Positions 2,842 to 36,796 of a DNA stretch of 64,000 nt are shown piece after piece. Position 1 is the stretch's first letter. Every line of letters starts with the position of its first letter. Origin of the DNA: a virus (lineage: Duplodnaviria; Caudoviricetes); the IMG/VR virus record IMGVR_UViG_3300017911_000967, positions 32,942-96,941 of that record. The stretch is one strand, 5' to 3'. The notes under the pieces are model-generated. The model searched no databases and was not told where the DNA came from. It saw nothing but the letters and a program-made list of their open reading frames with translations. A program made the translations under genes and the position numbers.

Positions 2842-4601
2842 TGGCGATACAAATCGACGACCGTCGAAATCATGTTGCGTTACATTCGAATACGGTAAGG
2901 AATGCGCTACCTGAATTCTTCGTTGAACAATACCCAGAGTTTATTCAGTTCCTTGAAAGATACTACGAGTATATGGAAGGGAACGAGAGTGGTTCGTTTT
3001 CAAAACAGATACAGTCATTATATAATGTACGTACTATCAGTAGCATCAACGGGTCCCATCTAGACTCACTACTTGCAGAACTTGCAGAAGGGATTCAGTC
3101 AGACACATTCTATCAGAACCCTCAGTTGATGGCAAGACTTCTTGCAAACTTTTATCGTGCGAAGGGTACAGAACAATCGGTAGAACAGTTCTTCCGTGGA
3201 TTCTTCGGCGACACCGTAGAGATTGACTATCCGAAACGTAACATCTTTATTCTGAACGACAAGCCAGGTGGGTCTCTTATCGGACCAGAGAGTGTCAAGT
3301 TTATTGTTGACAATAAGAAGTATCAGATCTTCTCTATCTTATTGAAGACGGGAATGAGTCTCATAGACTACGAAGCAATCTATAAGAAGTTTGCACATCC
3401 CGCTGGTTTCTATCTTGCGGCAGAAGTGGCACTATTGTCACATGCGGTCATCGGTGTTCGTGCGGGTCCTACTACAGATCCACTAGAGACACCGAACTAT
3501 CCAGTGCCGGTAGGATCAGAAGTGGGTGGTATCAATCTACGTTCTACGTTTGCATTGATGACGTTGCGTGAAACGGATCCAGAAGACATCACATTTATTC
3601 TAAGTGCGTTAGAGACGTTAGAACGTTATGACGATATTACCATTGAACGTCTTGCAGAGGTTTATACAACAATCGCAGATTGGGCGTCGACTCGATCGTT
3701 CAGAATGAGCAACGATGAGATCCTCATGTCCGAAGACTTCGAGTTACTTGATGGAGGTGCGGCAGAGACTACGATTGATTTAAGTGTAGGGACTCCTACA
3801 AAACTTGAACCACCTCAACCTATGCCGACTCCAGATCCAGAACCTGAACCAGAACCTGAACCAGAACCTGAACCAGAGCCGGGTCCAGAACCTGAACCAG
3901 AACCTGAACCACAACCTGAACCAGAGGATGATCTGCCGGATAACGTAAGTCATTACAGATCGACATACCCAGAGTATTCATGGGAACAGTGGATACCGAC
4001 TCTTAGGGTTACGGTCAAGTGGAACGATGAAGTGATCTATGATATCACAAATCATGAAGACGGTTGGCCTACAAGACTGATTGGTCCAGATGGTCGCATT
4101 TATGAACGTGGTGATCAGGAGTCTTCTTATGGAAATGGAAATATGTTTGGTGTACTTCGTGTGGGTCCAACACCAGAACCGGAACCAGAGCCGGAACCAG
4201 AGCCGGAACCACAACCAGAACCACAACCAGAACCACAACCAGAACCTGAACCAGAACCACAACCAGAACCTGAACCGCAACCGGAACCTGAGCCGGAACC
4301 TGAACCGGAACCTGAACCGGAACCTGAACCAGAACCGGAACCATCGGACATACGATACTCTAAAGACTCTCCAAGATTCTATTGGTATCATGCAAACTTC
4401 TTCGACCCAAGAGATCGGGAGGCTATGGTCTACACGGCAGTCTATTGGGATGATGAGCTAATATTCTCAGGGAGTGGAATAAATGGAAGATCTTCTTATA
4501 CTATTGGTGGTGTGACCTATGTGCGTAGAGATCTAAGAGACTCTCAATCATATGGTTCTCAACAGAATCTGATTGAATGGTACGCCATCGAGAAATCTTA
4601 A
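2841..4601 (+). CDS. gp7: Baseplate wedge initiator gp7-like protein with Pro-Glu linkers and two small C-terminal domains
   Basis: [32 protein letters not shown]...FF, HPAGF motifs of marine T4-like gp7; position after gp6. Confidence 0.75.
3831..3926 (+). repeat. Coding (PE/PQ)n tandem repeat, linker 1
   Basis: ccagaacctgaa-type 6/12-bp units. Confidence 0.9.
4173..4343 (+). repeat. Coding (PE/PQ)n tandem repeat, linker 2
   Basis: ccagaaccggaa/ccacaa units. Confidence 0.9.
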
Positions 4602-7600: not shown

Positions 7601-8786
7601 AGGTGTGACTGGCGACCAAGGCCCACAAGGTAGACAAGGTGCGACAGGTAATGTTGGACCACAGGGTGTCCAAGGACAACAGGGTCCACAGGGTCGCCAA
7701 GGTGCAACAGGTAATGTTGGACCACAAGGTGTTCAGGGACAACAGGGACCACAAGGCAGACAAGGTGCAACAGGTAATGTTGGACCACAGGGCGTACAAG
7801 GACAACAAGGTCCTCAAGGAAGACAGGGGGCGACAGGTAATGTTGGTCCTCAAGGTGTTCAGGGACAACAGGGTCCACAGGGTCGCCAAGGTGCAACTGG
7901 TAATGTTGGTCCTCAAGGTGTCCAAGGTCAACAAGGACCACAAGGTAGACAAGGTGCAACAGGTAATGTTGGACCACAAGGTGTCCAAGGTCAGCAAGGT
8001 CCTCAAGGAAGACAAGGTGCAACTGGTGTCACTGGTGCTCAAGGACAACAAGGTCAACAGGGTCCTCAAGGTAGACAGGGTGCCACTGGTGTCCAAGGTC
8101 AGCAGGGTCCACAAGGTAGACAGGGTGCCACTGGTGTCCAAGGTCAGCAGGGTCCACAAGGTAGACAGGGTGCCACTGGTGTCACTGGTGCACAAGGTGC
8201 TCAGGGACAACAGGGACCACAGGGTCGTCAAGGTGCAACTGGTGTCACTGGTGCTCAAGGTGCACAAGGTGCTCAGGGACAACAGGGACCACAGGGTCGT
8301 CAAGGTGCCACTGGACCAGATGGTGCGCAGGGACAACAGGGTCCTAGAGGTCGCCAAGGTAATCAAGGTCAACCAGGCCCAGACGGTCCTCAAGGTGCAA
8401 CAGGTGTTGCGGGTGTAACTGGTCAACAGGGTCCAGTCGGTGGATTCGGTAACGCAGTATTATTCAATACATCGACTTCGTTCCCATCGAATGTAAACGC
8501 AACAGCCTCCAGTGGAATTAAATCTTTCCGCACAGTTGATAAGATCTTTATCGGTGACGTTTGGTGGCACATCAATACGGGTCGAGTATTCAGATCAACA
8601 TCAAATGTGACTGGGTCAGGAAACGCTAACTTCACAGAGTTGACTAACAACCAAGGATTTGTTGATATGAGTGGTCTCCTAAATACAGGGACATCACCTA
8701 ATGAACGAATTGAGTTTTCGTCAACGTCTATAGACATTTATGATAACAGCAATAGTTTGAGGGTGAAGATCGGTAAGTTGAACTAA
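4638..8786 (+). CDS. Giant collagen-like fibre protein with gp9/gp10-like N-terminal baseplate anchor
   Basis: N-terminus [31 protein letters not shown] resembles the T4 gp9/gp10 N-terminus; ~389 Gly-X-Y triplets; C-terminal IYD...LRVKIGKL. Confidence 0.88.
4950..8456 (+). repeat. Gly-X-Y collagen repeat region ([18 protein letters not shown] blocks)
   Basis: Continuous triplets with only two single-residue interruptions (GTTP near 6434 and 6501). Confidence 0.95.
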
Positions 8787-16731: not shown

Positions 16732-16961
16732 TGAATAAATACCAGAAGGTCGAAGGACATACTAATCTAGTAAGAGACAAACAAACAGGGGCGATCCTGA
16801 ACACCAACCGTGCAGAGATCGCAAAGGCGAGAAAAATAAAAGAGGCTAAGAGACTAGAGACGGAAAGAATGAACTCACTCACGGAAGAGGTAACCACTCT
16901 GAAGAACGAGATGTCTGAGATCAAACAATTACTTACCCGTCTAGTGGAGAACAACGAATGA
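16731..16961 (+). CDS. Small conserved hypothetical protein following VrlC-like gene
   Basis: KVEGHTNLVRD..TGAILN motif plus C-terminal coiled coil; overlapping start/stop with both neighbours. Confidence 0.75.
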   Translation: MNKYQKVEGHTNLVRDKQTGAILNTNRAEIAKARKIKEAKRLETERMNSLTEEVTTLKNEMSEIKQLLTRLVENNE

Positions 16962-19900
16962 GTCACGGTGACGACACAATACAGATCATTAATCTCGCGG
17001 ATAACATCAACGCGGCGTTCGATAAGATCAACGAAAACTTCGAATTACTAGACGCAGGTTTAGATCGTGATGAAGTTATTGCTCTTATCACAGAACACTT
17101 GAACGACAACCCACACTTCTCTCTACAAGAGATTCGTGATCATATAGAGGGTGCCACTCTTGACATGAGTGGTAACAAAGTTTTATTCGGCAACGTGTAC
17201 CCTTCAGTATCAGACCTACCAGACGCGTCTGCTTATCATGGTATGTTCGCTCATGTTCATGACACTGGTGCTGCATACTTTGCGCACGGCGGTCAATGGG
17301 TAGAGTTAGCAAACAAGAGCGATGTGGGTACAGGGTCTTCGGACGTAGAATCTCTAGAAGACTTAGATGATGTCCAGTTTAGTTCTCCAGTGTTGGTCGG
17401 TCATGTCTTAAAGTGGGACGGAACCAAGTGGACTAACCTAGAAGACTCCAGTGGTGGCGGTGGTGGTCCAACAAATCCAGGCGAGAACGGAACCTCTTTC
17501 TATCAAGCGACAATCTACCAGAGATCTCCAACTCAACCATCGACCCCTAGTGGTGGTACATTCGACTTTCCTTCAGCTACACTAACCCCACCTTCAGATT
17601 GGTCAGGTACTATCCCAGAAGGTGATGATGACCTATGGGCATGTAACTTCCTATTCAGAGATTACCTATCGCAACAGGGAACGATTACCGCAACAGATTG
17701 GTCAGAACCATATAAGTTGGGCGGAATCGTTGATGCGAACAATGGTGATTCATATGCACAGGTTTCTATCTTTAAGAGATCGACAACATCTTTGACCGCA
17801 CCAACGGGTGGGTCGTTTGATTTTGGATCTCAGGTATTGACTCCACCGTCAGAGTGGTCTATTGTTCCCCCTCTACCTCAAGACGAAAATGGTAATCCAA
17901 CCGGAGATCTATATGTAAGTTCTGGCATCGCAACCAACGCTGGACTATCAGATCCTACGGGTAAAGACACAGACATCAACTGGACTAACCCAGTAAAGAC
18001 CTCTACAGGTCTCGACGGACAAGACGGTAAGTCTATCTTCGAGAAGGCAGTATACCGCAAGGTTCCTAAACCAGACGGATGGAAAGTTGGTGACGATATC
18101 CCAACTCCGTCTAAACCAGAAGGTGGTTTCTTCGACTTCGGTAACGAGGTGTTCGGTGGTGACCCACTAGATTCCGTTGCAGGAGAGTCGGGTGTTTGGT
18201 TCGAAGGAATCCCAGAAGGATCAGGTGACGTATGGTCATCTACCTATGCGTTCAGTGTTATCGGTGATACTGGAACAGATTATGCAGTCGTGGACGGATG
18301 GAGCGAACCTACACTAGGTATCATTGAGAGTGTATCAACATACTCCAAGGCTCTATACACACGATCTGCAACACCACCAAACCCGATCGCAAACAGTAAT
18401 GGTGTTGTCTATAACTTCACAGAAGATCGTTTTGAAAAGATAGGTGATACAGATGTCGTTGCTGGTGTAACCAATGGTACATGGTATGAAGAACCGCCAG
18501 AGTTAGACCTAGACAATCCTCTGAACTTATATGAAGTGAGGACAACTGCAAGTCTTATTGGGTATCTTGGTGTCGACAATACACTAACCTTCAGCGCACC
18601 TAAACTAGTAATGAACTATGCGGTCGACGCGGAGGATGGTTTCAGTTTTGTTCAGTTGAGTGTTTACAAGTGGTCGAATACTAGTCTTGATAATAATGCA
18701 GGCAAACCTTCAGGCGGTAGTTTCGACTTCTCAACGAAGACCTTTACACAACCAAGTGGGTGGTCTAAGACCATACCGGAGAACCCAGACGAAGACGACG
18801 CAAACATGAGGTTGTATGTGTCGTCCGGTATTGCTTCGACGCAACCAAACTCTGGTGACAGTACAGATCCAATCGTTGTCGATGATGTTATCGTTTGGTC
18901 TACACCAGACGTAACAACCGCCGGTGGTTCTGGTCGTGATGGTCGATCTACATTTAGAGCAGTTATTGTTCGAAGATCAGATCAAAATCCACCATCGAGT
19001 CCAACGGGTGGTTTTGTAAACTTCGGTGCTAATGCTGCAACAAAAACACAGGCAGAGGCTGCGGCAGCAAACGTCACGTCCAGTGGAACTCTAACGATCG
19101 CCGGTAACTCTTTAGTTCCACCAGACGGGTGGTACGATACCGTTGCAGAAATTCCATCGAGTCAAGCTCCGGACGGTAAGATCTGGGCAGTAGAATATCA
19201 ATTCGCCACAGATGGCGATACTGGTGTCGAGCCTGGTGGTACATGGTCTGCACCGTATGAAGATCACAACAATGGTGAGGACGGTTACTCAACCTTCTCC
19301 GCATCTGTTTATAAAAGAAGTGCCAACAAACCACCAGCAAGTGGTGGTAAGTGGGGCCCTGTCGGTGCAACATATAGTTTTACCAATGATCGCGTAGAGA
19401 ACTTGTCTGGCACTGGATGGACAGAAGATCCACAAGAATCCAATGAAGATCTCGATCCATTGTGGTTATGTCGTGCGACTGCGACTACGAAGGGACTTAC
19501 AGGAACCGACGCGACACTGACTTGGTCAGAACCAGTAAAGGTTTCAACCGATGGACAGCCAGGCGAAGTAGACCCAACTACTATACCTCAACAAGAGAAC
19601 GGTTATGTCTACTACCTAGTTGGGGACGGGACATCCGATGGTCCAGACACTCCAACCGCAACCAGTTTCAATTTCATAGGAACTGGAACGGTAGGCACTG
19701 ACGGAACATTTACTGGGCTAACAAACAACTGGTCTATCTCTCCACCGCAAGACACGAACCTAACCGGAAGTCTATGGGCAGCAAGATTCTTTGCAGTAGA
19801 AGATACTGCGGGAAGTCGAACTGCGACAACTGCCTCAGGTAACTTATTGTTCAGTCCTCCATTTAAGTCATACTCATTTGATGGTTTGGTAACCTTTACG

Positions 19901-20203
19901 AACACACAAGGTGCCCTGAGTCGAGACGATGGTGGCGCGACACGCATCGATGGTGGGTTTATCTCTGCAAATACCATCGAAGTAGAATCTATAAAAACCG
20001 ACGATCTAGATGCTAAGATTGCCACTGTCGCACAAACTTTAGTTGTCGGTGGTGCTGCAACGGACATAGATACTACGCAAGCGGACGGTTACTCATCATC
20101 GGGTGAGAGAATGGTTCTCACCGGAGAAAACATTAGAATTTATGATGCAAGCAGCACAGATGAATCTACAGGACTTCGCGTCAAACTAGGGAAACTTGTA
20201 TAA
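16958..20203 (+). CDS. Tail fibre protein with ~8 tandem ~95-110 aa repeats
   Basis: N-terminal FDKINENF and YHGMFAHVH motifs; repeats of the form Y.RS..P..P.GG.FDF...W...WS.P; C-terminal RIYDA...LRVKLGKL. Confidence 0.8.
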   Translation: MSHGDDTIQIINLADNINAAFDKINENFELLDAGLDRDEVIALITEHLNDNPHFSLQEIRDHIEGATLDMSGNKVLFGNVYPSVSDLPDASAYHGMFAHVHDTGAAYFAHGGQWVELANKSDVGTGSSDVESLEDLDDVQFSSPVLVGHVLKWDGTKWTNLEDSSGGGGGPTNPGENGTSFYQATIYQRSPTQPSTPSGGTFDFPSATLTPPSDWSGTIPEGDDDLWACNFLFRDYLSQQGTITATDWSEPYKLGGIVDANNGDSYAQVSIFKRSTTSLTAPTGGSFDFGSQVLTPPSEWSIVPPLPQDENGNPTGDLYVSSGIATNAGLSDPTGKDTDINWTNPVKTSTGLDGQDGKSIFEKAVYRKVPKPDGWKVGDDIPTPSKPEGGFFDFGNEVFGGDPLDSVAGESGVWFEGIPEGSGDVWSSTYAFSVIGDTGTDYAVVDGWSEPTLGIIESVSTYSKALYTRSATPPNPIANSNGVVYNFTEDRFEKIGDTDVVAGVTNGTWYEEPPELDLDNPLNLYEVRTTASLIGYLGVDNTLTFSAPKLVMNYAVDAEDGFSFVQLSVYKWSNTSLDNNAGKPSGGSFDFSTKTFTQPSGWSKTIPENPDEDDANMRLYVSSGIASTQPNSGDSTDPIVVDDVIVWSTPDVTTAGGSGRDGRSTFRAVIVRRSDQNPPSSPTGGFVNFGANAATKTQAEAAAANVTSSGTLTIAGNSLVPPDGWYDTVAEIPSSQAPDGKIWAVEYQFATDGDTGVEPGGTWSAPYEDHNNGEDGYSTFSASVYKRSANKPPASGGKWGPVGATYSFTNDRVENLSGTGWTEDPQESNEDLDPLWLCRATATTKGLTGTDATLTWSEPVKVSTDGQPGEVDPTTIPQQENGYVYYLVGDGTSDGPDTPTATSFNFIGTGTVGTDGTFTGLTNNWSISPPQDTNLTGSLWAARFFAVEDTAGSRTATTASGNLLFSPPFKSYSFDGLVTFTNTQGALSRDDGGATRIDGGFISANTIEVESIKTDDLDAKIATVAQTLVVGGAATDIDTTQADGYSSSGERMVLTGENIRIYDASSTDESTGLRVKLGKLV

Positions 20204-22038: not shown

Positions 22039-22491
22039 ATGAAAATTTTGGCATATGTAGATCAAGGAACAGGACAGATAGTCTCAGTATCTAGCGTCTC
22101 AGTTAGTGCCCCTAGTCATGAAGATGGAAATATAGTAGATGGTTTCCTTGTTAAAGATATTAGTTTCGCAGGAACTTCTTGGCAAACTTTCGGAAAAGAT
22201 CATTGGTGGGACGGTGGAGAATGGGTAGAAAGGGGCGAACAACCAACCCAATATCATTCATGGTTAAATGGTGAGTGGGTGTTTGTTCAATCTTCATTTG
22301 AAACCTCAGTAAGAAACATTAGAGATCAACTACTTCAACAGTCGGACTGGACTCAGATTCCAGACGCCCCACTATCGACAGATATGAAGAACGCATGGGC
22401 GGGATACCGTCAAGAGTTGCGTGATATTACTTCAAACTTAGAAGGTTTGACTAGTTTAGAAGACGTAAACTGGCCAGAACCACCACAGTAA
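22039..22491 (+). CDS. Tail fibre assembly chaperone
   Basis: C-terminal VRNIRDQLLQQSDWTQIPDAPL...WAGYRQELRDIT...VNWPEPP. Confidence 0.85.
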   Translation: MKILAYVDQGTGQIVSVSSVSVSAPSHEDGNIVDGFLVKDISFAGTSWQTFGKDHWWDGGEWVERGEQPTQYHSWLNGEWVFVQSSFETSVRNIRDQLLQQSDWTQIPDAPLSTDMKNAWAGYRQELRDITSNLEGLTSLEDVNWPEPPQ

Positions 22492-22518: not shown

Positions 22519-22549
22519 TGCGGTTACTTCGGTTCCCGCATTTTTTTTT
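22519..22549 (+). terminator. Rho-independent terminator
   Basis: TGCGG..AC-TTCG-GT..CCGCA hairpin followed by T9. Confidence 0.8.
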
Positions 22550-22551
22550 CT

Positions 22552-22559
22552 TATAAATA
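22552..22559 (+). promoter_or_regulatory. T4-type late promoter TATAAATA
   Basis: Exact consensus upstream of the 1602-aa repeat protein. Confidence 0.8.
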
Positions 22560-22610: not shown

Positions 22611-25600
22611 GTGTCAGCATCTAGTATACCACTAAAAATTCAAAATGCTAATGGTGACCTACAAGAATTCACTCCATCGGACGAATTATTTCTTTCGTAT
22701 GCAGTGGGACAAGCATTAGTTGCGGCCGCATCTAATGACGTTGGTAATATCAGTTTGACTGAAGGCCAATCAATCGGTTCATTTGTAGATTCTTACTACA
22801 ATGAAATATCTGGCACCCACCCTGCTTCACAGATCACGGGTGCCTCAGTGACCACCACTCTGAAGCAAGTGAGTGGCCCAGCAGATGAATCCGGTGCAGA
22901 CTTTGTCCGTCCAGTAGGTTATTACGACGTTGATCCAAACCCAGGCTTCTACGAAATGGTAGACGGGGACTTGGACAACCTAGCAGGTCGTGTTCTGTCT
23001 AACTTAGTACAGAACGACTATATCGGTACTTTCAAACTGTCCGCTACCCAACCAAGTGCAGACTATACAAAGTTCATTGACTCTGTATTCTCCGACACTC
23101 ACGGTAATGGTGCAGGTGGTACCGTAGTAACAAACTACCACATTTGGATGCGTACTTCTATGACGGCGGTTGCTCCAGTTCGTCCAGTAGCGACAAGCTA
23201 CGACGGTTCTGGTTTCAACGGTCTACGTGAAATGACAGATGCCCAGATCCAGTACACACTAGGTCAACGCATCAAGTCACTTCGTGCTACTTCCGGAGCG
23301 ATTGGTTCATACCAACTACGTTCAACAGCACAGGGCGCACCAACAGTCCCAGGCACATGGGTGTCTGTAGGCACTGCACAGAACACACGTCGTACACCAG
23401 TTGACGTTGCATACGCAAGAACTCGCGTATCTTCATACAACCGTGCACGTGTTTCTGCATACACTCGTACTCGTACATCTTCATATACGCGTAACAGTGT
23501 CAGTACATTTACTCGCACATTCGTAGGAAACTACGTCGGTGCATATTCACGTGACTTTGTAGGCAACTACTCACGTGACTTTGTTGGGAACTACTCACGT
23601 ACTCGCCCATCATCGTACTCAGGTACATACGCACGTACTCGCGTATCATCGTATTCACGTACTCGCCTAACTGCGTTTACTGGATACTTCGCGGGAACTT
23701 ACTCACGTGCTCGTGTTTCGGTTTACACTCGTAACCGCGTCACACCATTCACTGGTACATTCTCACGTAACCGTACTTCATCGTACACTCGTGGCCGTGT
23801 ATCATCTTACGTAGGCACTTACGCTCGCACACGTGTATCTTCATACTCAGCAGATTACACACGTAACCGTGTATCAACATATTCAGGAACTTATGCGGGA
23901 ACATACTCCCGTCTACGTGTTTCTGCGTATGCTGGAACATACACGCGCAACCGTGTTTCTTCTTATGCTGGAACATACACACGCACACGCGTATCTGCAT
24001 ATGCGACAGACTTTACCCGCGTCCGTGAACAGAACTTCGCAGGGACTTACACTGGTTACTATACTGGCGTATTCTCTCGTGCTCGTGTATCAACTTATAC
24101 GCGTAACCGTGTAACAGGTTTCGCAGGTAACTTCATCGGAAACTACTCTCGCAACTTCCAAGGTAACTATTCACGTAACTTCGTGGGTAACTACTCTCGT
24201 GGATTTGCTGGTAACTTCGTAGGTAACTACTCTCGCGTATCAACACGTACATCAACTCGCACACGTTACAGTGCTTACGCTCGTACACGCATCACTAACT
24301 ACGTTGGTGACTTTGCTCGTGATCGCGTCACTAACTTTGCGGGTAACTTCGTAGGAAACTACGCTCGCACCTTCGTAGGTAACTACGGTGGTAACTATAT
24401 CGGAAACTACGCTCGTGACTTCGTTGGAAACTACGTTGGTAACTACGCTCGTGCATATGTAGGTAACTACTCTCGCGGATTCGTAGGTAACTACGGTCGT
24501 AACTTCCTTGGAAACTTTGTCGGCAACTACAGCCGCAACTTCCTTGGTGACTTCGTCGGAAACTACGCTCGTGGTTTCGTCGGCGACTTCGTTGGAAATT
24601 TCGTAGGTAACTATGCACGTACTTCAACTCGTACATCTACTCGTACTCGTTACAGTGCATACGCTCGTACTCGTGCGACAAACTATACAAGAACTCGTGG
24701 TTCTTCTTACGCTCGTACTCGTGTCACTAACTACGTTGGTAACTTCACGCGCACATCTACTCGTAGCAGACCATCTACGTTCTCTTACGCACGTACTCTA
24801 TACTACGCAGGTGACTTCGTAGGTAACTATGGTCGTACTCGCGTAACAAACTACACTCGTGCTTCAGCGGTAGGTGTAACCTATACAGGTAACTACACAC
24901 GTAACCTATACTACGTCGGTAACTATGCCCGTGCATTCGCAGGAGATTTCGTAGGTAACTATGCTCGTAACCGTGCGTTCTCATACGTAGGTAACTACGC
25001 TCGTAACCGTGCGTTCTCATACGCAGGTAACTACTCACGTACTCGTGTAACAAACTTTGCAGGGAACTTCGTAGGCAACTACGCTCGTAACTTTGTGGGT
25101 AATTATAGTCGACAAGCGGGATTCTCTCGTAACTATGCTGGTAACTATTCTCGTAACTTTACTCGGGCCCGTTCGTTCTCATTCGCAGGTAACTACACAC
25201 GTACTGTTACATCAACTCGAACTTCTACTGGTACCACATGGGTCAATTTGCCAAACGGATCGACAGGCCCTACCAGCGCTGGCCATACTTACATTTACTA
25301 TAATGAAGATAGAGATCGATGGATCGGTAAGATAAATGGTCAGTGGTTATACTCGAACTATTCCGGAAATAGATTCTACTACTTTGGTTCGACGCCAGGA
25401 GCTATCGGAACAACGTTCTCGACAGTAGCTTATAACGGGTCTCCGGCCGGATTCTGGCGAGTAGGTGTTTCCTATTATGATACGAACGATGATAGAGATT
25501 ATCACTATATTCAGCAACAAAGCACGAATTCCTACACCGGAAACTTTGTAGGTAACTTAACATACACGCGCACCCGTGCTGGTACCTATACTGGTAACTA

Positions 25601-27419
25601 CTCTCGCGCATATGTACGTTGGCGCAGTCAACAATATACACGTACTCAGAACTATTCAAGAACTCGAGCTGCGGCTTACACACGTGATCGAGTCACTAAC
25701 TTCGCAGGTAACTTCGGTGGTACGTATACGCGTACTCGTGCTGGTAACTACACTGGTAACTACGCACGTACTCGTGCTGGTAACTACACTGGTAACTACG
25801 CTCGCACGTCAACACGTACACGTTACTCTGCATACGCAAGAACTCGCGTTGCGACAGGTACTTACACGCGTAACCGCGCTGCGACACTATACTACACTGG
25901 TGACTTTGTAGGTAACTTCGCAGGTGCATACACACGCACATCAACACGTACATCTACTAGGCCTGGTTACTACACACGTACACTAACTTACGCAGGTAAC
26001 TACGTAGGTAACTATACGACAACGTTCACTGGCGACTTCGTCGGTAACTATGCGCGTAACTTTGTGGGTGACTATGTTGGTAACTTCGTAGGTAACTATG
26101 CGCGTGGATTTGCTGGTAACTTTGCTGGTAACTTTGTAGGTGAATATGCACGTACTCGTGTAACGAACTACACTCGTACTCGTAACTCTGCGTACACACG
26201 TAACCGCACACAGAACTTTGCGAACTCTTACGCTCGCACACGTGAAACAAACTTCACTGGTTACTACACACGCAACCGTGCATCCGCATACGCTCGTACT
26301 CGTTACAGCGCATACGCTCGCACACGTGTAACTAACTACGTAGGTGACTTCACACGCGATTCAACCCGCACATCTACTCGTAACCGTGTTCCGACATACA
26401 CTCGTGATCGTGTAACTAACTTCGCTGGTAACTTCGTAGGAAACTACGCAACAACGTTTACCGGAGACTTCGTTGGTAACTACGCACGTGGATTTGCTGG
26501 TGAATATGCTGGTAACTTTACTGGTAACTATGCTCGTACTTCAACGCGCACTCGTTACTCTGCATACGCACGTACTCGTGTATCTGCATACGTCCGCAAC
26601 CGTGGATCATCATACACCCGTGACCGTGTAACTAACTTTGCTGGTGACTTCGTAGGTAACTACGCTCGCACCTTCTCTGGTCAGTACACACGTCAGTTCG
26701 TTGGTGAGTATGTTGGTGATTACGTAGGAACGTTCGCAGGTAACTACGTTGGTAACTTCACTCGTGGATTCGGTGGAAACTACGTCGGTAACTATGCACG
26801 TGGATTTGCTGGTAACTACGTAGGAAACTATAACCGTAGTTTCTTAGGTGAGTACACTGGTGCTTACTCTGGTACTTACTCTCGTGGATTTGCGGGTAAC
26901 TATGTAGGTAACTACAACCGTGGGTTCGTTGGTGAGTACACTGGCGCTTACAACCGTACATTCACAGGTAACTACTCTCGTGACTTCTCCGGTCAGTACA
27001 CACGCGACTTTGCTGGTGACTTCGTAGGTAACTACAGTCGTCAGTTCGCAGGTGAGTACACTGGTGCTTATGCGCGTGACTTCGTAGGTAACTTCGTGGG
27101 TAACTACAACCGTGGTTTCGTTGGTGAGTACACTGGTGCTTACTCTCGTGACTTCGTAGGTAACTACTCTCGTGTCCGTGTATCTGCATACGCACGTATC
27201 AGAACGTCTTCTTACTCAGGAGCATACACACGTGACCGTGTTTCTTCTTACGTAGGTGACTTTACTGGTAACTATACTCGTAACTTTGGTGGTAACTACA
27301 CCCGTGACTTTGCTGGAAACTACGCACGTAGCTTCGTCGGTAACTACATCGGTGCAACCATCTCTGATACACAGACCCACGTTACTGATACATATACATT
27401 ATATGTAAGGGTTGCATAA
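22611..27419 (+). CDS. Giant tetrapeptide-repeat structural protein; predicted self-complementary antiparallel beta-hairpin fibre
   Basis: GTG start after a late promoter; ~270-aa base domain, arm 1 (res 269-872), ~100-aa tip, arm 2 (res 976-1579), short C-terminal strand; units xRxR, xSxY, xGNY, xRxF. Confidence 0.85.
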   Translation: MSASSIPLKIQNANGDLQEFTPSDELFLSYAVGQALVAAASNDVGNISLTEGQSIGSFVDSYYNEISGTHPASQITGASVTTTLKQVSGPADESGADFVRPVGYYDVDPNPGFYEMVDGDLDNLAGRVLSNLVQNDYIGTFKLSATQPSADYTKFIDSVFSDTHGNGAGGTVVTNYHIWMRTSMTAVAPVRPVATSYDGSGFNGLREMTDAQIQYTLGQRIKSLRATSGAIGSYQLRSTAQGAPTVPGTWVSVGTAQNTRRTPVDVAYARTRVSSYNRARVSAYTRTRTSSYTRNSVSTFTRTFVGNYVGAYSRDFVGNYSRDFVGNYSRTRPSSYSGTYARTRVSSYSRTRLTAFTGYFAGTYSRARVSVYTRNRVTPFTGTFSRNRTSSYTRGRVSSYVGTYARTRVSSYSADYTRNRVSTYSGTYAGTYSRLRVSAYAGTYTRNRVSSYAGTYTRTRVSAYATDFTRVREQNFAGTYTGYYTGVFSRARVSTYTRNRVTGFAGNFIGNYSRNFQGNYSRNFVGNYSRGFAGNFVGNYSRVSTRTSTRTRYSAYARTRITNYVGDFARDRVTNFAGNFVGNYARTFVGNYGGNYIGNYARDFVGNYVGNYARAYVGNYSRGFVGNYGRNFLGNFVGNYSRNFLGDFVGNYARGFVGDFVGNFVGNYARTSTRTSTRTRYSAYARTRATNYTRTRGSSYARTRVTNYVGNFTRTSTRSRPSTFSYARTLYYAGDFVGNYGRTRVTNYTRASAVGVTYTGNYTRNLYYVGNYARAFAGDFVGNYARNRAFSYVGNYARNRAFSYAGNYSRTRVTNFAGNFVGNYARNFVGNYSRQAGFSRNYAGNYSRNFTRARSFSFAGNYTRTVTSTRTSTGTTWVNLPNGSTGPTSAGHTYIYYNEDRDRWIGKINGQWLYSNYSGNRFYYFGSTPGAIGTTFSTVAYNGSPAGFWRVGVSYYDTNDDRDYHYIQQQSTNSYTGNFVGNLTYTRTRAGTYTGNYSRAYVRWRSQQYTRTQNYSRTRAAAYTRDRVTNFAGNFGGTYTRTRAGNYTGNYARTRAGNYTGNYARTSTRTRYSAYARTRVATGTYTRNRAATLYYTGDFVGNFAGAYTRTSTRTSTRPGYYTRTLTYAGNYVGNYTTTFTGDFVGNYARNFVGDYVGNFVGNYARGFAGNFAGNFVGEYARTRVTNYTRTRNSAYTRNRTQNFANSYARTRETNFTGYYTRNRASAYARTRYSAYARTRVTNYVGDFTRDSTRTSTRNRVPTYTRDRVTNFAGNFVGNYATTFTGDFVGNYARGFAGEYAGNFTGNYARTSTRTRYSAYARTRVSAYVRNRGSSYTRDRVTNFAGDFVGNYARTFSGQYTRQFVGEYVGDYVGTFAGNYVGNFTRGFGGNYVGNYARGFAGNYVGNYNRSFLGEYTGAYSGTYSRGFAGNYVGNYNRGFVGEYTGAYNRTFTGNYSRDFSGQYTRDFAGDFVGNYSRQFAGEYTGAYARDFVGNFVGNYNRGFVGEYTGAYSRDFVGNYSRVRVSAYARIRTSSYSGAYTRDRVSSYVGDFTGNYTRNFGGNYTRDFAGNYARSFVGNYIGATISDTQTHVTDTYTLYVRVA
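23415..25226 (+). repeat. Hairpin arm 1: 4-residue-period repeats
   Basis: ARTR VSSY NRAR VSAY ... VGNY ... TRTS; 604 codons. Confidence 0.9.
25536..27347 (+). repeat. Hairpin arm 2: 4-residue-period repeats complementary to arm 1
   Basis: TGNF VGNL ... ARSF VGNY; 604 codons. Confidence 0.9.
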
Positions 27420-27526: not shown

Positions 27527-27988
27527 ATGAGTTATAGACGTTGGATGGACAACGCTTTTTGGGAAACAGAAGAGAAGAAAGAACTAAACTGTATCCTAGA
27601 AATGGAAGATGATGTGGGTCGTGTCACCCGTCAACAGATGTTGTTGGCAAGACATGATCGTGATGGAAATCCTAACGAGTTGTTTGCGGAAGTCGTGGAC
27701 GCACTTGGTGAAGAGTTGATCGATAAGGAAACTACCGATCGAGTCGAACGCAAAGCTGCGGAGGCGGAAGAAGAGAAACAACGTGAGTTAGAACATCAAA
27801 AGGCAAGGAAGCTTGAGAAACTGTTCAACTACAAACTAGAAGCGTTTGAGGTTGAAGAGATCAAGAACTCTAAGAACCGCAAGTTGAAGGCAAAATTGCG
27901 TCGTGCAAAATCAAAGATTGAAGTAGATATGTACTCAATCATGATTCTACAAGACCAACTAGAGGCCGAGACAGATGGAAAAGAGTAA
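27527..27988 (+). CDS. Hypothetical acidic helical protein (candidate fibre chaperone)
   Basis: GGAG upstream, 153 aa, charged helical C-half; function inferred from position only. Confidence 0.6.
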   Translation: MSYRRWMDNAFWETEEKKELNCILEMEDDVGRVTRQQMLLARHDRDGNPNELFAEVVDALGEELIDKETTDRVERKAAEAEEEKQRELEHQKARKLEKLFNYKLEAFEVEEIKNSKNRKLKAKLRRAKSKIEVDMYSIMILQDQLEAETDGKE

Positions 27989-28712
27989 AGGGTTTATTAT
28001 CGTTGCGTCAAAGAAGCGCAACTTTTATTTGTACGCAATCAATCTTGCAGAGTCTCTCAGGGACTACTATGAACCAGAAGAGGAATGCAAGATCTGTTTG
28101 GTGACTGAGGAACGATTCCTTGATGACCGTGGTCGAGATGTCGCAGACGATATTCTCTTATGTGACGATCACTACCGCGCTAAGTTATGGGGTATGGCGA
28201 AATCGCCGTATGACCTAACGATGTATATCGATGCTGATATGGAAGTAGAACACGAAGACATCTGTAAAGTTTGGGATGAAATGAAGGACCATGATGTGGT
28301 CTTTACTGCTTTGACAGATGATCGTGACTACATATATGCAGAACGTGACTTTGACACTCCAGAGGGTGTTTCTAAGTTCACACTATGCGGTGCAGTATGT
28401 TTATATGATATGTCCAAACCGATTGTGCGTGAATTCATGAATGATTGGTGGGACTTGACATTCAGACAGATGAATGACACTTGGTGGCCAGACGGGTATG
28501 CGGACAGTCTCAAATCTTGGGACCAGTTCTCACTCTGGTGGTTGACTGAGAAAGAAGAAAAGTATAAGGATCTCAAAGTTGGAATCTTTGATGACGACTT
28601 GAGATGGAACTACTACAACGCACTTAATTGGGCAATAACAAAACCAGAAACAGGGCCAGTGATTATCCGTCACTTCTCTGCTGGTCTTAATAAGGATACA
28701 CCAATCGTATGA
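27975..28712 (+). CDS. GT-A glycosyltransferase (GT8-like/nucleotide-diphospho-sugar transferase)
   Basis: AINLAESLR, K...MAKSPYDLTMYIDAD (DxD), WDQFSL, RWN motifs. Confidence 0.78.
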   Translation: MEKSKGFIIVASKKRNFYLYAINLAESLRDYYEPEEECKICLVTEERFLDDRGRDVADDILLCDDHYRAKLWGMAKSPYDLTMYIDADMEVEHEDICKVWDEMKDHDVVFTALTDDRDYIYAERDFDTPEGVSKFTLCGAVCLYDMSKPIVREFMNDWWDLTFRQMNDTWWPDGYADSLKSWDQFSLWWLTEKEEKYKDLKVGIFDDDLRWNYYNALNWAITKPETGPVIIRHFSAGLNKDTPIV

Positions 28713-29416
28713 CACAGTTAAACGACCAATATCTAAAGCACGTCGAAGTTAAGAACCCTGAGTTGCTTGCGATTCTGGACAACTACGCTGGACTACCGAA
28801 GATTCCTGGCTTTGCAGAGAACTGTCACTGCACTTCTCAGGAACGTATTCGTCAGCGTAACTGGTACGTTGGACCAAAGTACATGCAAGAGATTGTAGAT
28901 GAGGGAACGCAACACGAAGGTTTCCCAGATGAGATGGTAGGTTATAACTTTAAACTATCAGATCGCGCTCACCAGATGTTCGAGTCAGATGCAGATCCAA
29001 TCTTCAAGCGTGACATGACGCACATGTTGTCAGATTTAAACGACAAGATGATGAACTTCCTGTCAGTCAAGCACAATGCGCTTGCAGCGGTATACCCGCC
29101 AGGCGGTTTCATTGCATGGCACAACAACGCTAACGCGCCAGGATTCAATCTAATCTTCTCTTACTCAGAGAGTGGTTCAGGTTGGTTCGACTACATCCAT
29201 CCGGAAACTAAAGAAGTTATCCGTTGTCAAGACAAGCCAGGTCAGTGGACTTGCAAGGCAGCATACTTCGGACACTACGGAGAAGAAGAGAAACTAATGT
29301 ATCACGCTGCATCTTCAGAAGATGATTGGCGCGTAACAGTTTCTTACGTCTTCGACTGGTCTGAGACTTCAGAAGAATTCCGTGAGATGGTCTTAGAAGA
29401 CATCGCTTCAGAATAA
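28709..29416 (+). CDS. 2OG-Fe(II) oxygenase-like (DSBH) protein, paralog of 51798-52442
   Basis: YPPGGFIAWHNN...MYHAA...RVTVSY. Confidence 0.7.
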   Translation: MTQLNDQYLKHVEVKNPELLAILDNYAGLPKIPGFAENCHCTSQERIRQRNWYVGPKYMQEIVDEGTQHEGFPDEMVGYNFKLSDRAHQMFESDADPIFKRDMTHMLSDLNDKMMNFLSVKHNALAAVYPPGGFIAWHNNANAPGFNLIFSYSESGSGWFDYIHPETKEVIRCQDKPGQWTCKAAYFGHYGEEEKLMYHAASSEDDWRVTVSYVFDWSETSEEFREMVLEDIASE

Positions 29417-31212: not shown

Positions 31213-34200
31213 ATGGCATTTAGGCAGATTAAATCCCCAGCATTAGCGGACAAGGCGGTAATCGATACCAAACTTGACGAAAGTGCGGTACAGGGACAAT
31301 CAACCCTTACAGGTATGACCGACCCATCATCGTGTTTTACACTTCTGTATGATGTAGCTTCGGACTCTCTAAAGAAGATCGGTGCTGATGCATTCTTCGC
31401 ATCATTCTCAACCGACGATCTAGCAGAAGGTTCAAATCTATACTACACCGCAGAACGTGCAAACGCTGATGTTGCTGCACAAATCGACGCAGATGTTCAA
31501 GTCGAAACAAATCGTGCGATAGCCGAAGAAGGTCGTATCGAATCAGAATCTAAGTCACGTGACAATAAGTTAGAAGGTCAAGATTCTGCATTAAGTAACC
31601 GTATCACAAACGAAGTAAATCGTGCGGAAAGTGTAGAAACTCGTATCGAAGACGAATCTAAGCAACGCGACAGCGCACTTGGTGTTCGTATCGACAACGT
31701 CCTAAACAACACGGACGAAGTTGCACTTAACTCTCTTGCAGAAATCGTTACTGCGTTCCAAAACGCAGATAGTGCACTTTCTGGTTCTATCATCCAGAAC
31801 GCTAATGATATCGTCGCAGAACGCGAACGTGCAGTTGCTCGTGAGAACCAGATCGAGACAGAATACCGTCTTGCAGATAGCGCACTAAGCGATCGTATCA
31901 TCGAGCGTAAGAACGCAACTGACAGTGATTTCACTCACTTCACACTTGCTGATCAAAATCTACAAAACCAGATCACGTCTAACGATGGCGACATCGCTAC
32001 ATTGTTCGCACAGGATTCTGCTGAAACGCAACGCGCTTCAGATGAAGAATCTCGTATCGAACAAAAACTTAATGAAGAAATCGCACGTTCTAAGGGCGTT
32101 GACTCAGCTCACAGTGCACAGATCACCGCTGCTAACCAAGCACGTGTTGCAGACGACAACGTTGTTCGTTCAGAGTTCGCTGCTGCTGACCAAGTAATCA
32201 AAGCTCAAGTAGAAGCACGTGACGACGCACTTATCGGTGACGCAAGTGTTGACGGAACTTCTGGAAACACAATCACCGATCGTATCGCAACTGCAAAAGC
32301 AGAAGCAATCCTCGAAGGTAATGATGTTGTTGCATTCGAGAACCAACAACGTCGTAACGCAGATAGTGATCTACAAGCACAGATCGATGCAGAAGTTGCT
32401 CGCGCAACTGCAGCAGAAGACGCACTGGGCGATCGTATCGATTCAGACTACACTGCTAACTGGGCAGACCACGCGGCAATCCGTGAAGAGTTTGCTGCTG
32501 GTGACGCAAACCTACAGTCTCAGATCGACTTCATCACATCTAACACAGACTCCGCTGCACTAGATTCTCTAACAGAGATCGTTGCAGAAGTTGCTCGTGT
32601 AGATGGAACAGTAAACGCATTGATCCAGACTAACGTCGGTGACATCGAAGCAGAACGTCTAGCACGTATCGCTGCTGACAGTGCATTGAGTACTCGCATT
32701 GATATCGAAGTATCTACACGTCGTGCTGGTGACTCTGCAGCTAACAAGCGTATCGACGACGCAATTCTAGATTACATTGCTCGCGATTCAGATGTTCTAT
32801 CATCTGCAAAAGCATACACAGATCAAGAAGCAGACGCACACCAAGCTGCTGGTGAAGAGTACACACGTCAGTATGTAACTCCACGCATCGGTGACGCAAC
32901 TGTCGACGGAACTGCTGGTAACACAATCACAAACCGCATCACCACTGCTAAGTCAGAAGCGATGACATACGCAGCGGGTCTAGATTCAGACGAACGCGCT
33001 CGTGCGACGACTGCTGAAGGTCTACTAAGTGGTCGCGTTGGTCACGTCGAAGGTCTACTAGACTCAGCGACATTCGAAACTGTTGCACAAACAGTTGTCC
33101 CAGCGATCAACGAACTACACGGTGATGCAGTATCATACGATCTACAATCGAAAGACCGCGACACTGCTCTTGGTCTTCGTATAGACCTACTAGAAGACGG
33201 AACTTCAATCGACGTTGAAGATCTAAATATTCGTCTTGGTATCGAAGAAGGTGTTCGTGAACGCGCTGACTCAGATCTACTTGCACGACTAATCGTTGAA
33301 GAGAACCGTTCTAAACTAGAAGACGGTCAACACGATTCGGACATTAGTGCTCTAGGTCTTGTCACTAGTGGTATCCGTGGTGATCTAACGATCGAAACCA
33401 CTACTCGTATCGACGAAGACACTATTTTACGTAACCGTATCGCTGCTGACAGTGATCGACTAACACTTCTAGATTCACAAGCTCACGTCCGTATGGATGT
33501 AATCTTGGCAGGAAGTGTAGCAAAAGATTCAGATCTACAATCACAGATCAACGCAGAAGTTGCTCGTTCAACCGCGAAAGATTCTTCACACGATTCTGAC
33601 ATCGCAGTACTATACAACCAAGTTGGTACAGATGTACAAGATCTACAGGATCAAATCGATGCCGAAATCGAACGTGCGACAGGTGTAGAGTCTAATCTAC
33701 AATCACAGATCACTTCAAACGATGGCGACATCACTGCACTACAAGCGAAAGATTCTGATCTACAAGCTCAGATCTCTTCAAACGACGCAGACATCTTTGC
33801 ACTACAAGCGAAAGATTCTAACCAGCACGCTACTGCAATGCAAGCGATCGCTGACGAAACACTTCGCGCTACTGGCATTGAAACTGGTCTACGTTCGGAT
33901 GTAGATAGTGCACACGCACGTATCGATCACATCCTAGACGGTTCTTCAACTGATCTAGATCAGATGCTAGAAATCGTCAACGCATTCCGTGACGCTGACA
34001 ATGACCTAGATGGTGTTATCACCAACAACACTGGTCGCATCACTACACTAGAGAATCGTGCAGACGAAACTGATGACGAACAGGTTATTCAGGATGGTCG
34101 ACTAACTTCACTAGAAGGTCGCATGACTGCGAACGAAGCTGTCGATTCAGATCAGTCAGTAACTCTTGGTGATCACGAATCTCGCATCACAGCGAACGAA

Positions 34201-36723
34201 ACTCGTATCGGTGATAAGTCACTTGTATTGAAGACTCCTTCACAGTCACTGTCTGAAGCAATCAACGATCTATACGACGACATCACAGCAGAAGGTACTT
34301 CTCTTGTTGGTGTAACTGATCGTGTTGAAGTTCTAGAAACTCGCGCTGATGCAGATTCAGACCTACAGGTTGTTCAAAATGCACGTCTAGATTCTGCTGA
34401 AGGTCGTTTGACTGTAAACGAAGGCGACATCGACGCACTAGAAACTAAGATGGGTACTGTTGCACTGGATACAACTGCACAAGCAGTACGTCCAGCAATC
34501 AACGAACTACACACTCAGATAGATAGCAACACTTCACGTGTTGGTGTCGTAGAGGGTCGTGCAGACGTAACTGATATCGAACAGGCTGCACAGGATGCAC
34601 GTCTAGATTCACTAGAATCAGATCGCGCATTCAACATCATCAAAGATACACAACAAGACACACGTCTTGATGGTCTAGAAAATCGTGTCGATATGGACAC
34701 AGTCTTCCAGACATCTGCAAACAAAGTTGTTCCAGCAATCAACGAACTGAAAGGTCGTCTTGATGCCGCTGATCAGTTTGCACAAGATGAGAAGGTGCGT
34801 CAAGATCAAGATTCTGATCGTCTAACGACAGAAATCGCTACTCGTGCGCAAGAAGACTCTGCACTTGAAGGTCGTCTAAACGGTCGTATCGATTCAGCAG
34901 AGAACAAGATCGCTGGGGACATCTCAGTATCTCTTGCAGAAGCAAAGGCATACACACGCGAATACGCAGATGACGCTGAGTCAGATGCACGTGCATATGC
35001 ACTTGGTTTGGTCTCTCAGGAGAACGAAGCACGTATTCTCAACCAGCAAGCTCAACGTCAGTTGATCGATGGTAACCACGAAATCGGCACACAGAGAGAT
35101 AACGCACAAGACCTACTAATCTCGGGTCTACAGTCAGAACTAGATGCAACTCAAGTGGGCGCTGGTCTAGGTCCAGATGGTGAATATCTAACTCCAGATT
35201 CTTCATCAACATACCTACAAGCAACTACTTCATTGATGAATGCGATCCTTACTCTTGATACTAACCTTGCGACAGTATCTGGTGTAAACAACAATGGTCG
35301 TAACAGTCTGCAACAACAGATCAACAATGAAATCACTGCTCGTCAGAACGGTGACTCAGATCTACTTGCACGTCTAATCGCTGAAGAAGTTTACACTAAG
35401 GCACAAGATTCTGCAATCAACGGTCGTATCGACAACACGAACACAGCACTTGCACGAGAAGTTGCTGATCGTCTAGCAGGTGATTCTGATCTACAAGCAC
35501 AGATCGACTTCATCACATCTAACACAGACTCTGCTGCACTAGATTCTCTAACAGAGATCGTTGCTGAGTTCCAACGTGTAGATGGTGGTCTATCTGGTCT
35601 AATTTCTGCTAACGCTGCAGAGATTGTCCGTGTAGAAGAGGAATCTAAGGAACGCGACTCTGACGAAGAAGCTGCACGTATCGCTGGTGACGCTGCTCTA
35701 CAAACTCAAGTAGACGCACGTGTCAAGAAGGCTGGGGACACAATGTCTGGTGACCTAGACATGACAGGTAACATGGTTACAGGTCTTGGTGTTCCAGTTG
35801 AAATGTCAGATGCGACAAACAAAGCATACACAGACGCACGTCTTGCTGAACAGCACATTTCGCAGTTCACTACAGACAGTCTAACTGAAGGAACACGACT
35901 ATACTTCACAGAGGCACGTGCTCGCGCGGCAGTCTCGGTGTTTGATGTAGACGGAGAAGGTGACGTTTCTTACGACGCTAACTCTGGTGTTATTTCAATC
36001 GCAACAGGTAAGAAGTTCGTAGAACTAGAAGATGTCGTAACATCTGAAATCACTGACAATATGGGCGGTTTCGTTGCTCGTGTCAAGACAGATGGTACAG
36101 GTATCGAACTAGTTCCACCAACACAACTAGCATTCAACGACGCTAAGCGCCAGACAATCAACGGTGACGGAATCGCGAGTACATTCTCACTAGATTTCTA
36201 CACTGCACAGATCAACGCTCTAGTATTCGTCGGTGGTGTTATTCAGGATCCGGGCGTACACTACACAATCAACTCAGGAACGCAAGAAATTACGTTCACA
36301 TCTGCGGTACCACTAGGTACACAGGCGGTAGTAATCGCACAGTCAACTAACTCAGTTGGTGTCCTAGATCCTAAGTCAGTAGGTGTTGAAACACTTGCAG
36401 ATAACCTAAAGGCATTCGAACACGGTCTAGACGTAGTTGCTGGTACTTCACCAACAGTCGTCTCTTCATTCGATCCAACAGTATATCGTTCTGCGAAGTA
36501 CGTTATCACTGTAGAACAGAACGGTGAGTTTGAGACTCGCGAGTGTATGGTTGTCCATGATGGAACAAGTGCTTACATTACCGAATACGGTATTGTCTTC
36601 ACAGGTTCTTCGTTACTAGGTGACACAGATGTACGTTTCATCAACAGCAATGTTGAACTAATGTACACTACTGAGTCTGGTGACGCAGTTGTTTCAGTTG
36701 CGGTAACTTACGTTAACGTATAA
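31213..36723 (+). CDS. Giant coiled-coil fibre protein (1836 aa), Asp-Ser rich
   Basis: Heptad E..RA...E/D..LQ.QI repeats, LDSLTEIV knots, DA.NK.Y.D motif, C-terminal YRSAKY.I....EYG domain. Confidence 0.8.
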   Translation: MAFRQIKSPALADKAVIDTKLDESAVQGQSTLTGMTDPSSCFTLLYDVASDSLKKIGADAFFASFSTDDLAEGSNLYYTAERANADVAAQIDADVQVETNRAIAEEGRIESESKSRDNKLEGQDSALSNRITNEVNRAESVETRIEDESKQRDSALGVRIDNVLNNTDEVALNSLAEIVTAFQNADSALSGSIIQNANDIVAERERAVARENQIETEYRLADSALSDRIIERKNATDSDFTHFTLADQNLQNQITSNDGDIATLFAQDSAETQRASDEESRIEQKLNEEIARSKGVDSAHSAQITAANQARVADDNVVRSEFAAADQVIKAQVEARDDALIGDASVDGTSGNTITDRIATAKAEAILEGNDVVAFENQQRRNADSDLQAQIDAEVARATAAEDALGDRIDSDYTANWADHAAIREEFAAGDANLQSQIDFITSNTDSAALDSLTEIVAEVARVDGTVNALIQTNVGDIEAERLARIAADSALSTRIDIEVSTRRAGDSAANKRIDDAILDYIARDSDVLSSAKAYTDQEADAHQAAGEEYTRQYVTPRIGDATVDGTAGNTITNRITTAKSEAMTYAAGLDSDERARATTAEGLLSGRVGHVEGLLDSATFETVAQTVVPAINELHGDAVSYDLQSKDRDTALGLRIDLLEDGTSIDVEDLNIRLGIEEGVRERADSDLLARLIVEENRSKLEDGQHDSDISALGLVTSGIRGDLTIETTTRIDEDTILRNRIAADSDRLTLLDSQAHVRMDVILAGSVAKDSDLQSQINAEVARSTAKDSSHDSDIAVLYNQVGTDVQDLQDQIDAEIERATGVESNLQSQITSNDGDITALQAKDSDLQAQISSNDADIFALQAKDSNQHATAMQAIADETLRATGIETGLRSDVDSAHARIDHILDGSSTDLDQMLEIVNAFRDADNDLDGVITNNTGRITTLENRADETDDEQVIQDGRLTSLEGRMTANEAVDSDQSVTLGDHESRITANETRIGDKSLVLKTPSQSLSEAINDLYDDITAEGTSLVGVTDRVEVLETRADADSDLQVVQNARLDSAEGRLTVNEGDIDALETKMGTVALDTTAQAVRPAINELHTQIDSNTSRVGVVEGRADVTDIEQAAQDARLDSLESDRAFNIIKDTQQDTRLDGLENRVDMDTVFQTSANKVVPAINELKGRLDAADQFAQDEKVRQDQDSDRLTTEIATRAQEDSALEGRLNGRIDSAENKIAGDISVSLAEAKAYTREYADDAESDARAYALGLVSQENEARILNQQAQRQLIDGNHEIGTQRDNAQDLLISGLQSELDATQVGAGLGPDGEYLTPDSSSTYLQATTSLMNAILTLDTNLATVSGVNNNGRNSLQQQINNEITARQNGDSDLLARLIAEEVYTKAQDSAINGRIDNTNTALAREVADRLAGDSDLQAQIDFITSNTDSAALDSLTEIVAEFQRVDGGLSGLISANAAEIVRVEEESKERDSDEEAARIAGDAALQTQVDARVKKAGDTMSGDLDMTGNMVTGLGVPVEMSDATNKAYTDARLAEQHISQFTTDSLTEGTRLYFTEARARAAVSVFDVDGEGDVSYDANSGVISIATGKKFVELEDVVTSEITDNMGGFVARVKTDGTGIELVPPTQLAFNDAKRQTINGDGIASTFSLDFYTAQINALVFVGGVIQDPGVHYTINSGTQEITFTSAVPLGTQAVVIAQSTNSVGVLDPKSVGVETLADNLKAFEHGLDVVAGTSPTVVSSFDPTVYRSAKYVITVEQNGEFETRECMVVHDGTSAYITEYGIVFTGSSLLGDTDVRFINSNVELMYTTESGDAVVSVAVTYVNV

Positions 36724-36743
36724 TCGAGACTTACATAATAGTC

Positions 36744-36766
36744 GGGGGGAGAATCAGTCTCCCCCC
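36744..36766 (+). terminator. GC-rich hairpin between the two coiled-coil fibre genes
   Basis: GGGGGGAGA-ATCAG-TCTCCCCCC; no strong T tract, so it may be a processing/stabilising hairpin. Confidence 0.45.
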
Positions 36767-36796
36767 AATCAACCAAAATTCTAAAAGGTAAACAAA

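Follow-up and report, generated by a model that had tools for sequence, protein, structure and literature searches.

The adhesins of T-even phages are mosaics in which hypervariable segments of gp37 and gp38 lie between conserved motifs that favour their exchange by recombination. In gp37 of phage T4, the tip subdomain that binds the receptor is inserted into an antiparallel stem and makes up the distal pole (PMC6957217). Little is understood of how the abundant marine T4-like phages recognise their hosts, and most of their fibre genes lack annotation. The stretch of DNA analysed here (the window) comprises 64,000 nucleotides (nt) of the uncultured Caudoviricetes record IMGVR_UViG_3300017911_000967 (97 kb in full), and contains a fibre gene with a GTG start (22611-27419; 4,809 nt, stop included) that encodes a protein of 1,602 amino acids (aa). 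According to the original prediction, a non-repetitive domain of ~100 aa at the apex of a protein hairpin, encoded in frame within this gene at 25227-25535, is a candidate exchangeable receptor-binding module, read as a distal adhesin or lectin swapped by recombination in the flanking repeats. Comparison of homologous fibre genes makes it very probable that this domain (the tip) lies at the apex of a fold-back hairpin and that it is exchangeable, and a role in host recognition is the favoured reading of its function. No description of this fold-back fibre family was found in literature searches.

All features of the fibre gene described below lie on the plus strand. A non-repetitive N-terminal base domain (aa 1-264; 22611-23402), 45-96% identical across homologues, is followed by an outgoing repeat arm of ~608 aa (aa 265-872; 23403-25226) built of tetrad and octad repeats of the FVGN-YSRx and RxRVSSY types, by the tip itself (aa 873-975; 25227-25535), by a return repeat arm of ~605 aa (aa 976-1580; 25536-27350) that is mirror-complementary to the outgoing one, and by a conserved C-terminal segment of 22 aa (aa 1581-1602, ..TYTLYVRVA; 27351-27416) kept in all complete homologues. 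The homologues are a fibre of phage C48C1 and those of 33 IMG/VR loci, and the N-terminus and C-terminus are common to them. As had been claimed, the 103 aa of the tip are free of the repeat motifs. The tip is predicted to be all-beta, is essentially neutral in charge (net -1, versus +78 for the outgoing and +53 for the return arm), and holds four of the five tryptophans found in the arms and tip together. It is rich in aromatic residues, as had been noticed, but this does not distinguish it, the aromatic content being 0.20 in tip and arms alike. Histidine occurs only at aa 70, 164, 177, 892, 965 and 1590, leaving the arms without any, and arginine is the sole basic residue of the arms (171 arginines, no lysine, net charge +131). 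Neither the whole fibre protein nor its tip has a match in Pfam, PHROG, NCBIfam or PDB sequences, and the base domain has none in Pfam, PHROG or PDB.

The symmetry of the fibre was assessed with two independent measures. In a mirror test, the local glycine-minus-arginine density of one arm was correlated with the reversed other arm, and the strongest anti-correlation in the window fibre was observed with the centre at aa 923 (r = -0.68). The best mirror centre coincides with the geometric midpoint of the repeat region to within 1 aa in 19 of 20 unique complete homologues (1,163-2,282 aa), with r at about -0.7. When individual glycine-opposite-arginine pairs between positions i and j were counted, five of the eight independent N-arm segments of the window fibre peaked at i+j = 1847, and the remaining segments at 1839 (one octad off) and 1849. 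Both measures place the symmetry centre at aa 923-924, in the middle of the tip, where the original prediction had put it, and the tip boundaries add up to 873+975 = 1848, matching the cross-arm register. In the 3,347-aa fibre of C48C1, excision of five globular inserts brings the optimum exactly to the midpoint, which lies inside the apex domain of that fibre. Six close relatives carry 28-aa insertions at aa 674 and at aa ~1168, that is, 250 and 244 aa from the centre on either side, and both of these mirror insertions are missing from the homologue L015 and from the window fibre. Equal arm lengths, compensated mirror insertions and deletions, and a constant cross-arm register would otherwise be hard to explain, and therefore argue for antiparallel pairing of the arms, so that the term hairpin apex appears justified for the location of the tip. 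Together with the boundaries of the variable cassette described below, which are themselves cross-arm partners, these regularities give structure-independent evolutionary support for an unusual fold-back fibre architecture.

Two simpler kinds of symmetry were tried and rejected. A search for the same repeat type mirrored on both arms gave best centres off the midpoint, the arms being complementary rather than identical. There is also no DNA inverted repeat in the gene, and the symmetry is therefore one of the protein only. The sole homologue whose mirror centre departs from the midpoint (L021, IMGVR_UViG_3300007548_000035; centre 958 versus midpoint 947) has 24 aa fewer than the near-identical homologues related to it, and its offset may represent an uncompensated deletion or an assembly error.

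Exchange is evident from comparison of the window fibre with eight relatives whose N-terminal domains are 95-96% identical to its own. The DNA is 88-91% identical to theirs as far as aa 815 and again from aa ~1031 onwards; between these limits (aa 816-1030) blastn detects no similarity to any of the eight, and at either limit (aa ~815 and ~1031) 30 nt suffice for the identity to sink from ~90% to background. The variable cassette delimited by these blastn breakpoints, by the drop in identity and by the register (25056-25700) contains the tip flanked by irregular repeats, ~55 aa to either side, and its breakpoints are again cross-arm partners (816+1030 = 1846, register i+j = 1847). Judging from these boundaries, the unit swapped in this phage is a self-contained hairpin end, larger than the tip. 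At the protein level, the window tip is only 17-27% identical to the tips of the relatives that share 95-96% of the N-terminal domain, and the homologues L006 and L015, with N-terminal domains 100% and C-terminal parts 97% identical, have tips that are 30% identical. Across homologues, the tip is thus not conserved in the way that the base domain is. The reverse pattern is found in L004 and L032, whose N-terminal domains are 63% and whose tips are 87% identical. In this pair the synonymous divergence (dS) is 1.3-2.0 in the backbone and 0.055 in the tip, and nucleotide identity of 0.87-1.0 is restricted to the ~100 tip codons; a tip dS this low on saturated backbones therefore indicates that only the tip was recently transferred. 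In four other homologue pairs, the tip dS is ~2-5x the backbone dS. Two recently diverged tip pairs show ratios of non-synonymous to synonymous divergence (dN/dS, omega) of 1.24 and 3.7, as against 0.1-0.3 in their backbones.

Every globular tip in the family, regardless of class, is flanked by the same two short motifs, STR[TV]S and Y[TA]GNF. In the window fibre, the first is present as S-T-R-T-S-T immediately before and into the tip (aa 868-873; 25212-25229), and the second as Y-T-G-N-F at its end (aa 975-979; 25533-25547). In an alignment of the window tip and its 100-aa flanks with 14 homologues, columns T97, R98 and S100 of the N-side junction are invariant. The two motifs are plausible recombination and structural junctions.

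Codon usage had been offered as a further sign that the tip is swapped, and here the observation holds while the interpretation does not. Asparagine is encoded by AAC in 117 of 119 cases in the arms and in 4 of 9 in the tip (p = 9e-6), CGT or CGC accounts for ~92% of arginine codons in the arms and for none of the five in the tip (p = 3e-6), and aspartate is encoded by GAT in 6 of 6 cases in the tip versus 7 of 31 in the arms (p = 7e-4). The difference is marginal for tyrosine (TAT in 7 of 13 tip versus 40 of 153 arm codons; p = 0.05) and just nominal for glycine (GGA at 0.38 in the tip versus 0.28 and 0.17 in the two arms), and the GC content is 0.443 in the tip and 0.473 and 0.482 in the arms. 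Against the rest of the window, however, the deviant codon usage is that of the arms and not of the tip (asparagine codons of the arms versus those of other genes, p = 8.5e-22). Furthermore, all 15 other family tips are relaxed relative to their own arms (AAT 31% versus 9%; arginine codons other than CGY 58% versus 8%). A shift present in every tip separates repeats from non-repeats and therefore says nothing about foreign origin, and a horizontal source of the tip, as a reading of the codon shift, is ruled out. The mistake is an easy one to make, as the shift flags the arms as unusual and not the tip as foreign. The uniformity of codons in the arms extends far beyond that of the rest of the window. 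The repeats nearest the tip are, as predicted, the most irregular: aromatic spacings that are not multiples of four make up 32-57% of those within 150 aa of the tip and 0-20% of those farther out.

Across the family, the apex is occupied by at least three sequence-unrelated classes of tip, and in some members by minimal turns. Tip classes A and B are related to one another (hhalign probability 80%, E 1.4e-5), and class C tips have no detectable relation to class A. These domains, like that of C48C1, share with the window tip their position at the symmetry centre, their junction motifs, their size (77-105 aa) and their relaxed codon usage, but have no detectable similarity to it in sequence; against a profile of 14 family tips, the window tip gave an hhalign probability of 0.1%, and it shows no profile similarity to classes A and B with their core (W ... 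GGVTYYRG ... YGVTY). No relative of the window tip was found in similar-length proteins (searched with aa 850-1000), in phage genomes (tblastn), in IMG/VR, in metagenome contigs or in the rest of its own 97-kb record, and there is no significant match among PDB sequences. The sole weak match (E 9e-7), in a library of 1.84 billion proteins, is to a bacterial RTX/cadherin-repeat protein (P0003); this library holds representatives of whole proteins clustered at 50% identity, in which the same tips on related backbones could be hidden. Residues 31-80 of the tip align to each ELWxxDGT-type repeat unit of that protein at 32-34% identity (pairwise E 2e-5). The alignment covers only half of the tip, which has no match to TIGR04534 or any other NCBIfam model at E up to 1. 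The similarity may reflect a shared beta-rich composition of glycine, threonine and tyrosine, and is treated as a lead only.

Two further observations concern globular domains outside the apex. The C48C1 fibre (CDS0201; L002:112-10155) carries its five extra globular inserts, of ~125-325 aa, on the return arm only, the first of them consisting of a ~250-aa domain followed by a partial duplicate, of a domain type shared with the homologue L033. Because their excision restores exact arm symmetry, the inserts are best described as lateral side-branches on the hairpin. Pfam searches with the other family tips and with the lateral domains of C48C1 and L033 gave nothing significant. In the window itself, an open reading frame of 586 aa for a baseplate-wedge-like protein (2841-4601) ends in a long proline-glutamate linker and an ~85-aa domain (4230-4601) that is similar to apex domains of class A in other fold-back fibres (hhalign probability 67%, E 5.4e-5; E 1.4e-4 in the search). 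A class A apex-type domain thus seems, from these profile matches, to have been reused on another virion protein of a phage whose fibre apex holds an unrelated domain.

The favoured reading is that the tip is an exchangeable host-binding module that sets adsorption specificity, and a probability of roughly 0.6 is assigned to it in full. It is preferred because of the tail-fibre context, the distal position of the tip and the confinement of exchange and diversifying change to it, because domains of 85-105 aa are retained where a short turn would suffice, and because of the T4 gp37 precedent; from these we infer that the fibre is attached to the tail and that its tip binds a host receptor. The late-expressed fibre chain would leave the small base domain, extend over ~605 residues, turn, and pair antiparallel with itself over ~605 residues back, such that glycine-type tetrads of one arm would face arginine-type tetrads of the other. 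The tip at the apex would be a fast-evolving specificity module, which recombination in the population replaces either alone, at the junction motifs, or together with matched stem, as with aa 816-1030 here. Most likely it would touch the host surface first and decide the specificity of adsorption, in the manner of the nested needle tip of T4 gp37.

Several findings weigh against this interpretation. The homologues L017, L019-23, L028, L029 and L033 carry just a 20-35-aa aromatic turn at the apex, so that the fibre can exist without a globular tip. The fibres of C48C1 and L033 bear large extra globular domains on the return arm, and in those phages binding could in fact take place through these lateral domains. 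No lectin, carbohydrate-binding module or adhesin family was matched by the window tip in Pfam, PHROG, NCBIfam or PDB sequences, and AlphaFold2 returned low-confidence models (mean predicted local distance difference test score, pLDDT, 35.5 for the tip with 100-aa flanks and 14 homologues, and 34.0 for the tip alone). In addition, the dN/dS values come from only 86-94 codons each.

The alternative that survives best is that the tip is a structural cap or folding nucleus, which closes the hairpin, sets the register of the arms and binds nothing, and varies since almost any compact beta domain would serve. The homologues that manage with an aromatic turn fit this explanation, as does the lack of a binding-family signature in the tip; irregular repeats near the tip are what would be expected of a stem adapting to its cap, and a cassette that brings its own matched stem suggests structural co-adaptation. 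Neutral drift of a cap does not, however, predict an omega above 1 in recently diverged tips or a recent sweep of one tip across backbones with saturated synonymous sites, and leaves unexplained why domains of 85-105 aa are kept though a 25-aa turn suffices. The related small domain that is apparently displayed on the proline-glutamate linker of the other virion protein, moreover, has no hairpin to cap. A purely structural role is for these reasons considered unlikely. Binding of a different kind is also conceivable: immunoglobulin-like decorations on phage capsids have been proposed to raise encounter rates by weak adhesion, and the tip could likewise bind polysaccharide, mucus or particles and leave the receptor to other fibres encoded nearby. 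Several more fibre-like proteins are encoded in the window (a collagen-like fibre, 4638-8786; a tail fibre, 16958-20203; large proteins, 31213-39583), and C48C1 strings at least six globular domains on the same scaffold in a manner resembling multivalent display. An arms race with a variable host surface would account at least as well for the recent tip exchange and for omega above 1, and weak adhesion as the main role of the tip is considered improbable.

That the tip is an assembly chimera or sequencing artefact joining unrelated DNA in a repeat-rich gene is highly improbable: repeats are prone to misassembly and the window tip is absent from the other collections searched, but the reading frame is open, both junction motifs are preserved, the insert fits the hairpin register with exact symmetry, and Logan contigs from two sequencing runs span 24700-25760 (arm, tip and arm) with 0 differences, with a 218-nt contig inside the tip in a third sample, the three matching runs all coming from one seawater study, possibly that of the source sample. 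A run from another study, of a coral-reef metagenome, covers the arms and not 25123-25545, a coverage gap that is not evidence either way; its contigs are unlike the window from 25040 on and up to 25587.

Beyond the host-binding reading of this one tip, a broader picture of the family can be put forward tentatively, at odds slightly short of even. The fibre would be a single-chain hairpin scaffold of ~600 residues per arm, with a code of glycine-opposite-arginine and aromatic tetrads, that displays interchangeable binding domains at its apex and sometimes sideways, and the window tip would be a receptor-binding fold without sequence relatives in ~15 billion proteins, recruited to a site at which populations shuffle unrelated domains by way of junction motifs. 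A precisely bounded candidate specificity module, with conserved junctions and natural exchanges, makes host-range hypotheses testable for uncultured phages.

The genomic setting is that of the structural region of a T4-like myovirus, with baseplate wedge proteins, a collagen-like fibre, a DUF4815 giant protein and a tail fibre in the window, and terminase, sheath, portal and major head protein genes further 3' of the fibre gene. Directly 5' of it lies a gene for a tail-fibre assembly chaperone (22039-22491, plus strand; PF16778 Phage_tail_APC, E 1.5e-16, with matches to PHROG tail fiber assembly families), and the same order of chaperone and fibre genes is annotated in C48C1. Between the two, a terminator-like hairpin (GCGG..CCGC and a T run) was read from the plus strand and is followed by TATAAATA at 22552-22559 (22520-22559 for the whole element). 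This box, the T4 late-promoter consensus, sits ~52 nt upstream of the GTG start, and marks the fibre gene as a predicted late structural gene with its own T4-type late promoter. Its place in the tail-fibre module, its dedicated assembly chaperone and its late expression signals are those of a phage tail fibre. On its 3' side, three small genes (27527-29416) have counterparts of conserved size, in the same order, in C48C1, where they measure 462, 729 and 708 nt; their Pfam matches are all sub-threshold, including one to Glycos_transf_2 (E 0.006) for 27975-28712, and they might modify or assemble the fibre.

The sole cultured or deposited relative is phage C48C1, filed under Kyanoviridae in GenBank. 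The major head protein of the window (49943-51247) is 77% identical to that of C48C1 and next, at 61-62%, to those of pelagimyophage HTVC008M (62%) and Methylophilales phage Melnitz, and classical Synechococcus and Prochlorococcus myoviruses are not its nearest relatives. The Kyanoviridae label of C48C1 may not, on this comparison, mean a cyanobacterial host, and with a major head protein nearest to C48C1 and then to HTVC008M, the phage is therefore not called a cyanophage here. The sequencing runs that contain the stretch are seawater metagenomes.

Compared with the T4 gp37 needle tip, the window fibre has the same nested fold-back, small distal tip and antiparallel return, which are deduced here from sequence symmetry alone, and it likewise belongs to a T4-like tail-fibre module with a chaperone gene adjacent. 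The differences are considerable. No homology of the window fibre or its tip to gp37 is detectable in family or PDB sequence searches, and the iron-coordinating His-x-His sites of gp37 have no counterpart in a fibre that is devoid of any such motif and whose arms lack histidine altogether. The window arms are ~605 aa each as opposed to ~50 aa in gp37 (~12x), and the tip is 103 aa as opposed to 28 aa. The whole window protein, moreover, makes up a single hairpin that its N- and C-termini close, and across the family unrelated domains alternate at the apex. Like the mosaic adhesins of the T-even phages, the window fibre has a variable specificity segment between short conserved motifs (STR[TV]S and Y[TA]GNF in this family), and there is evidence that fibre genes otherwise divergent have exchanged such segments. 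Neither the proteins nor the motifs are related, however; in the fold-back fibres the site can hold a complete domain unrelated to the others or just a minimal turn, and what is exchanged may take matched stretches of the two arms with it. On the evidence of its symmetry and its exchanges, the window fibre would thus work like the gp37 needle tip and the T-even mosaic adhesins, yet it is not a member of those families.

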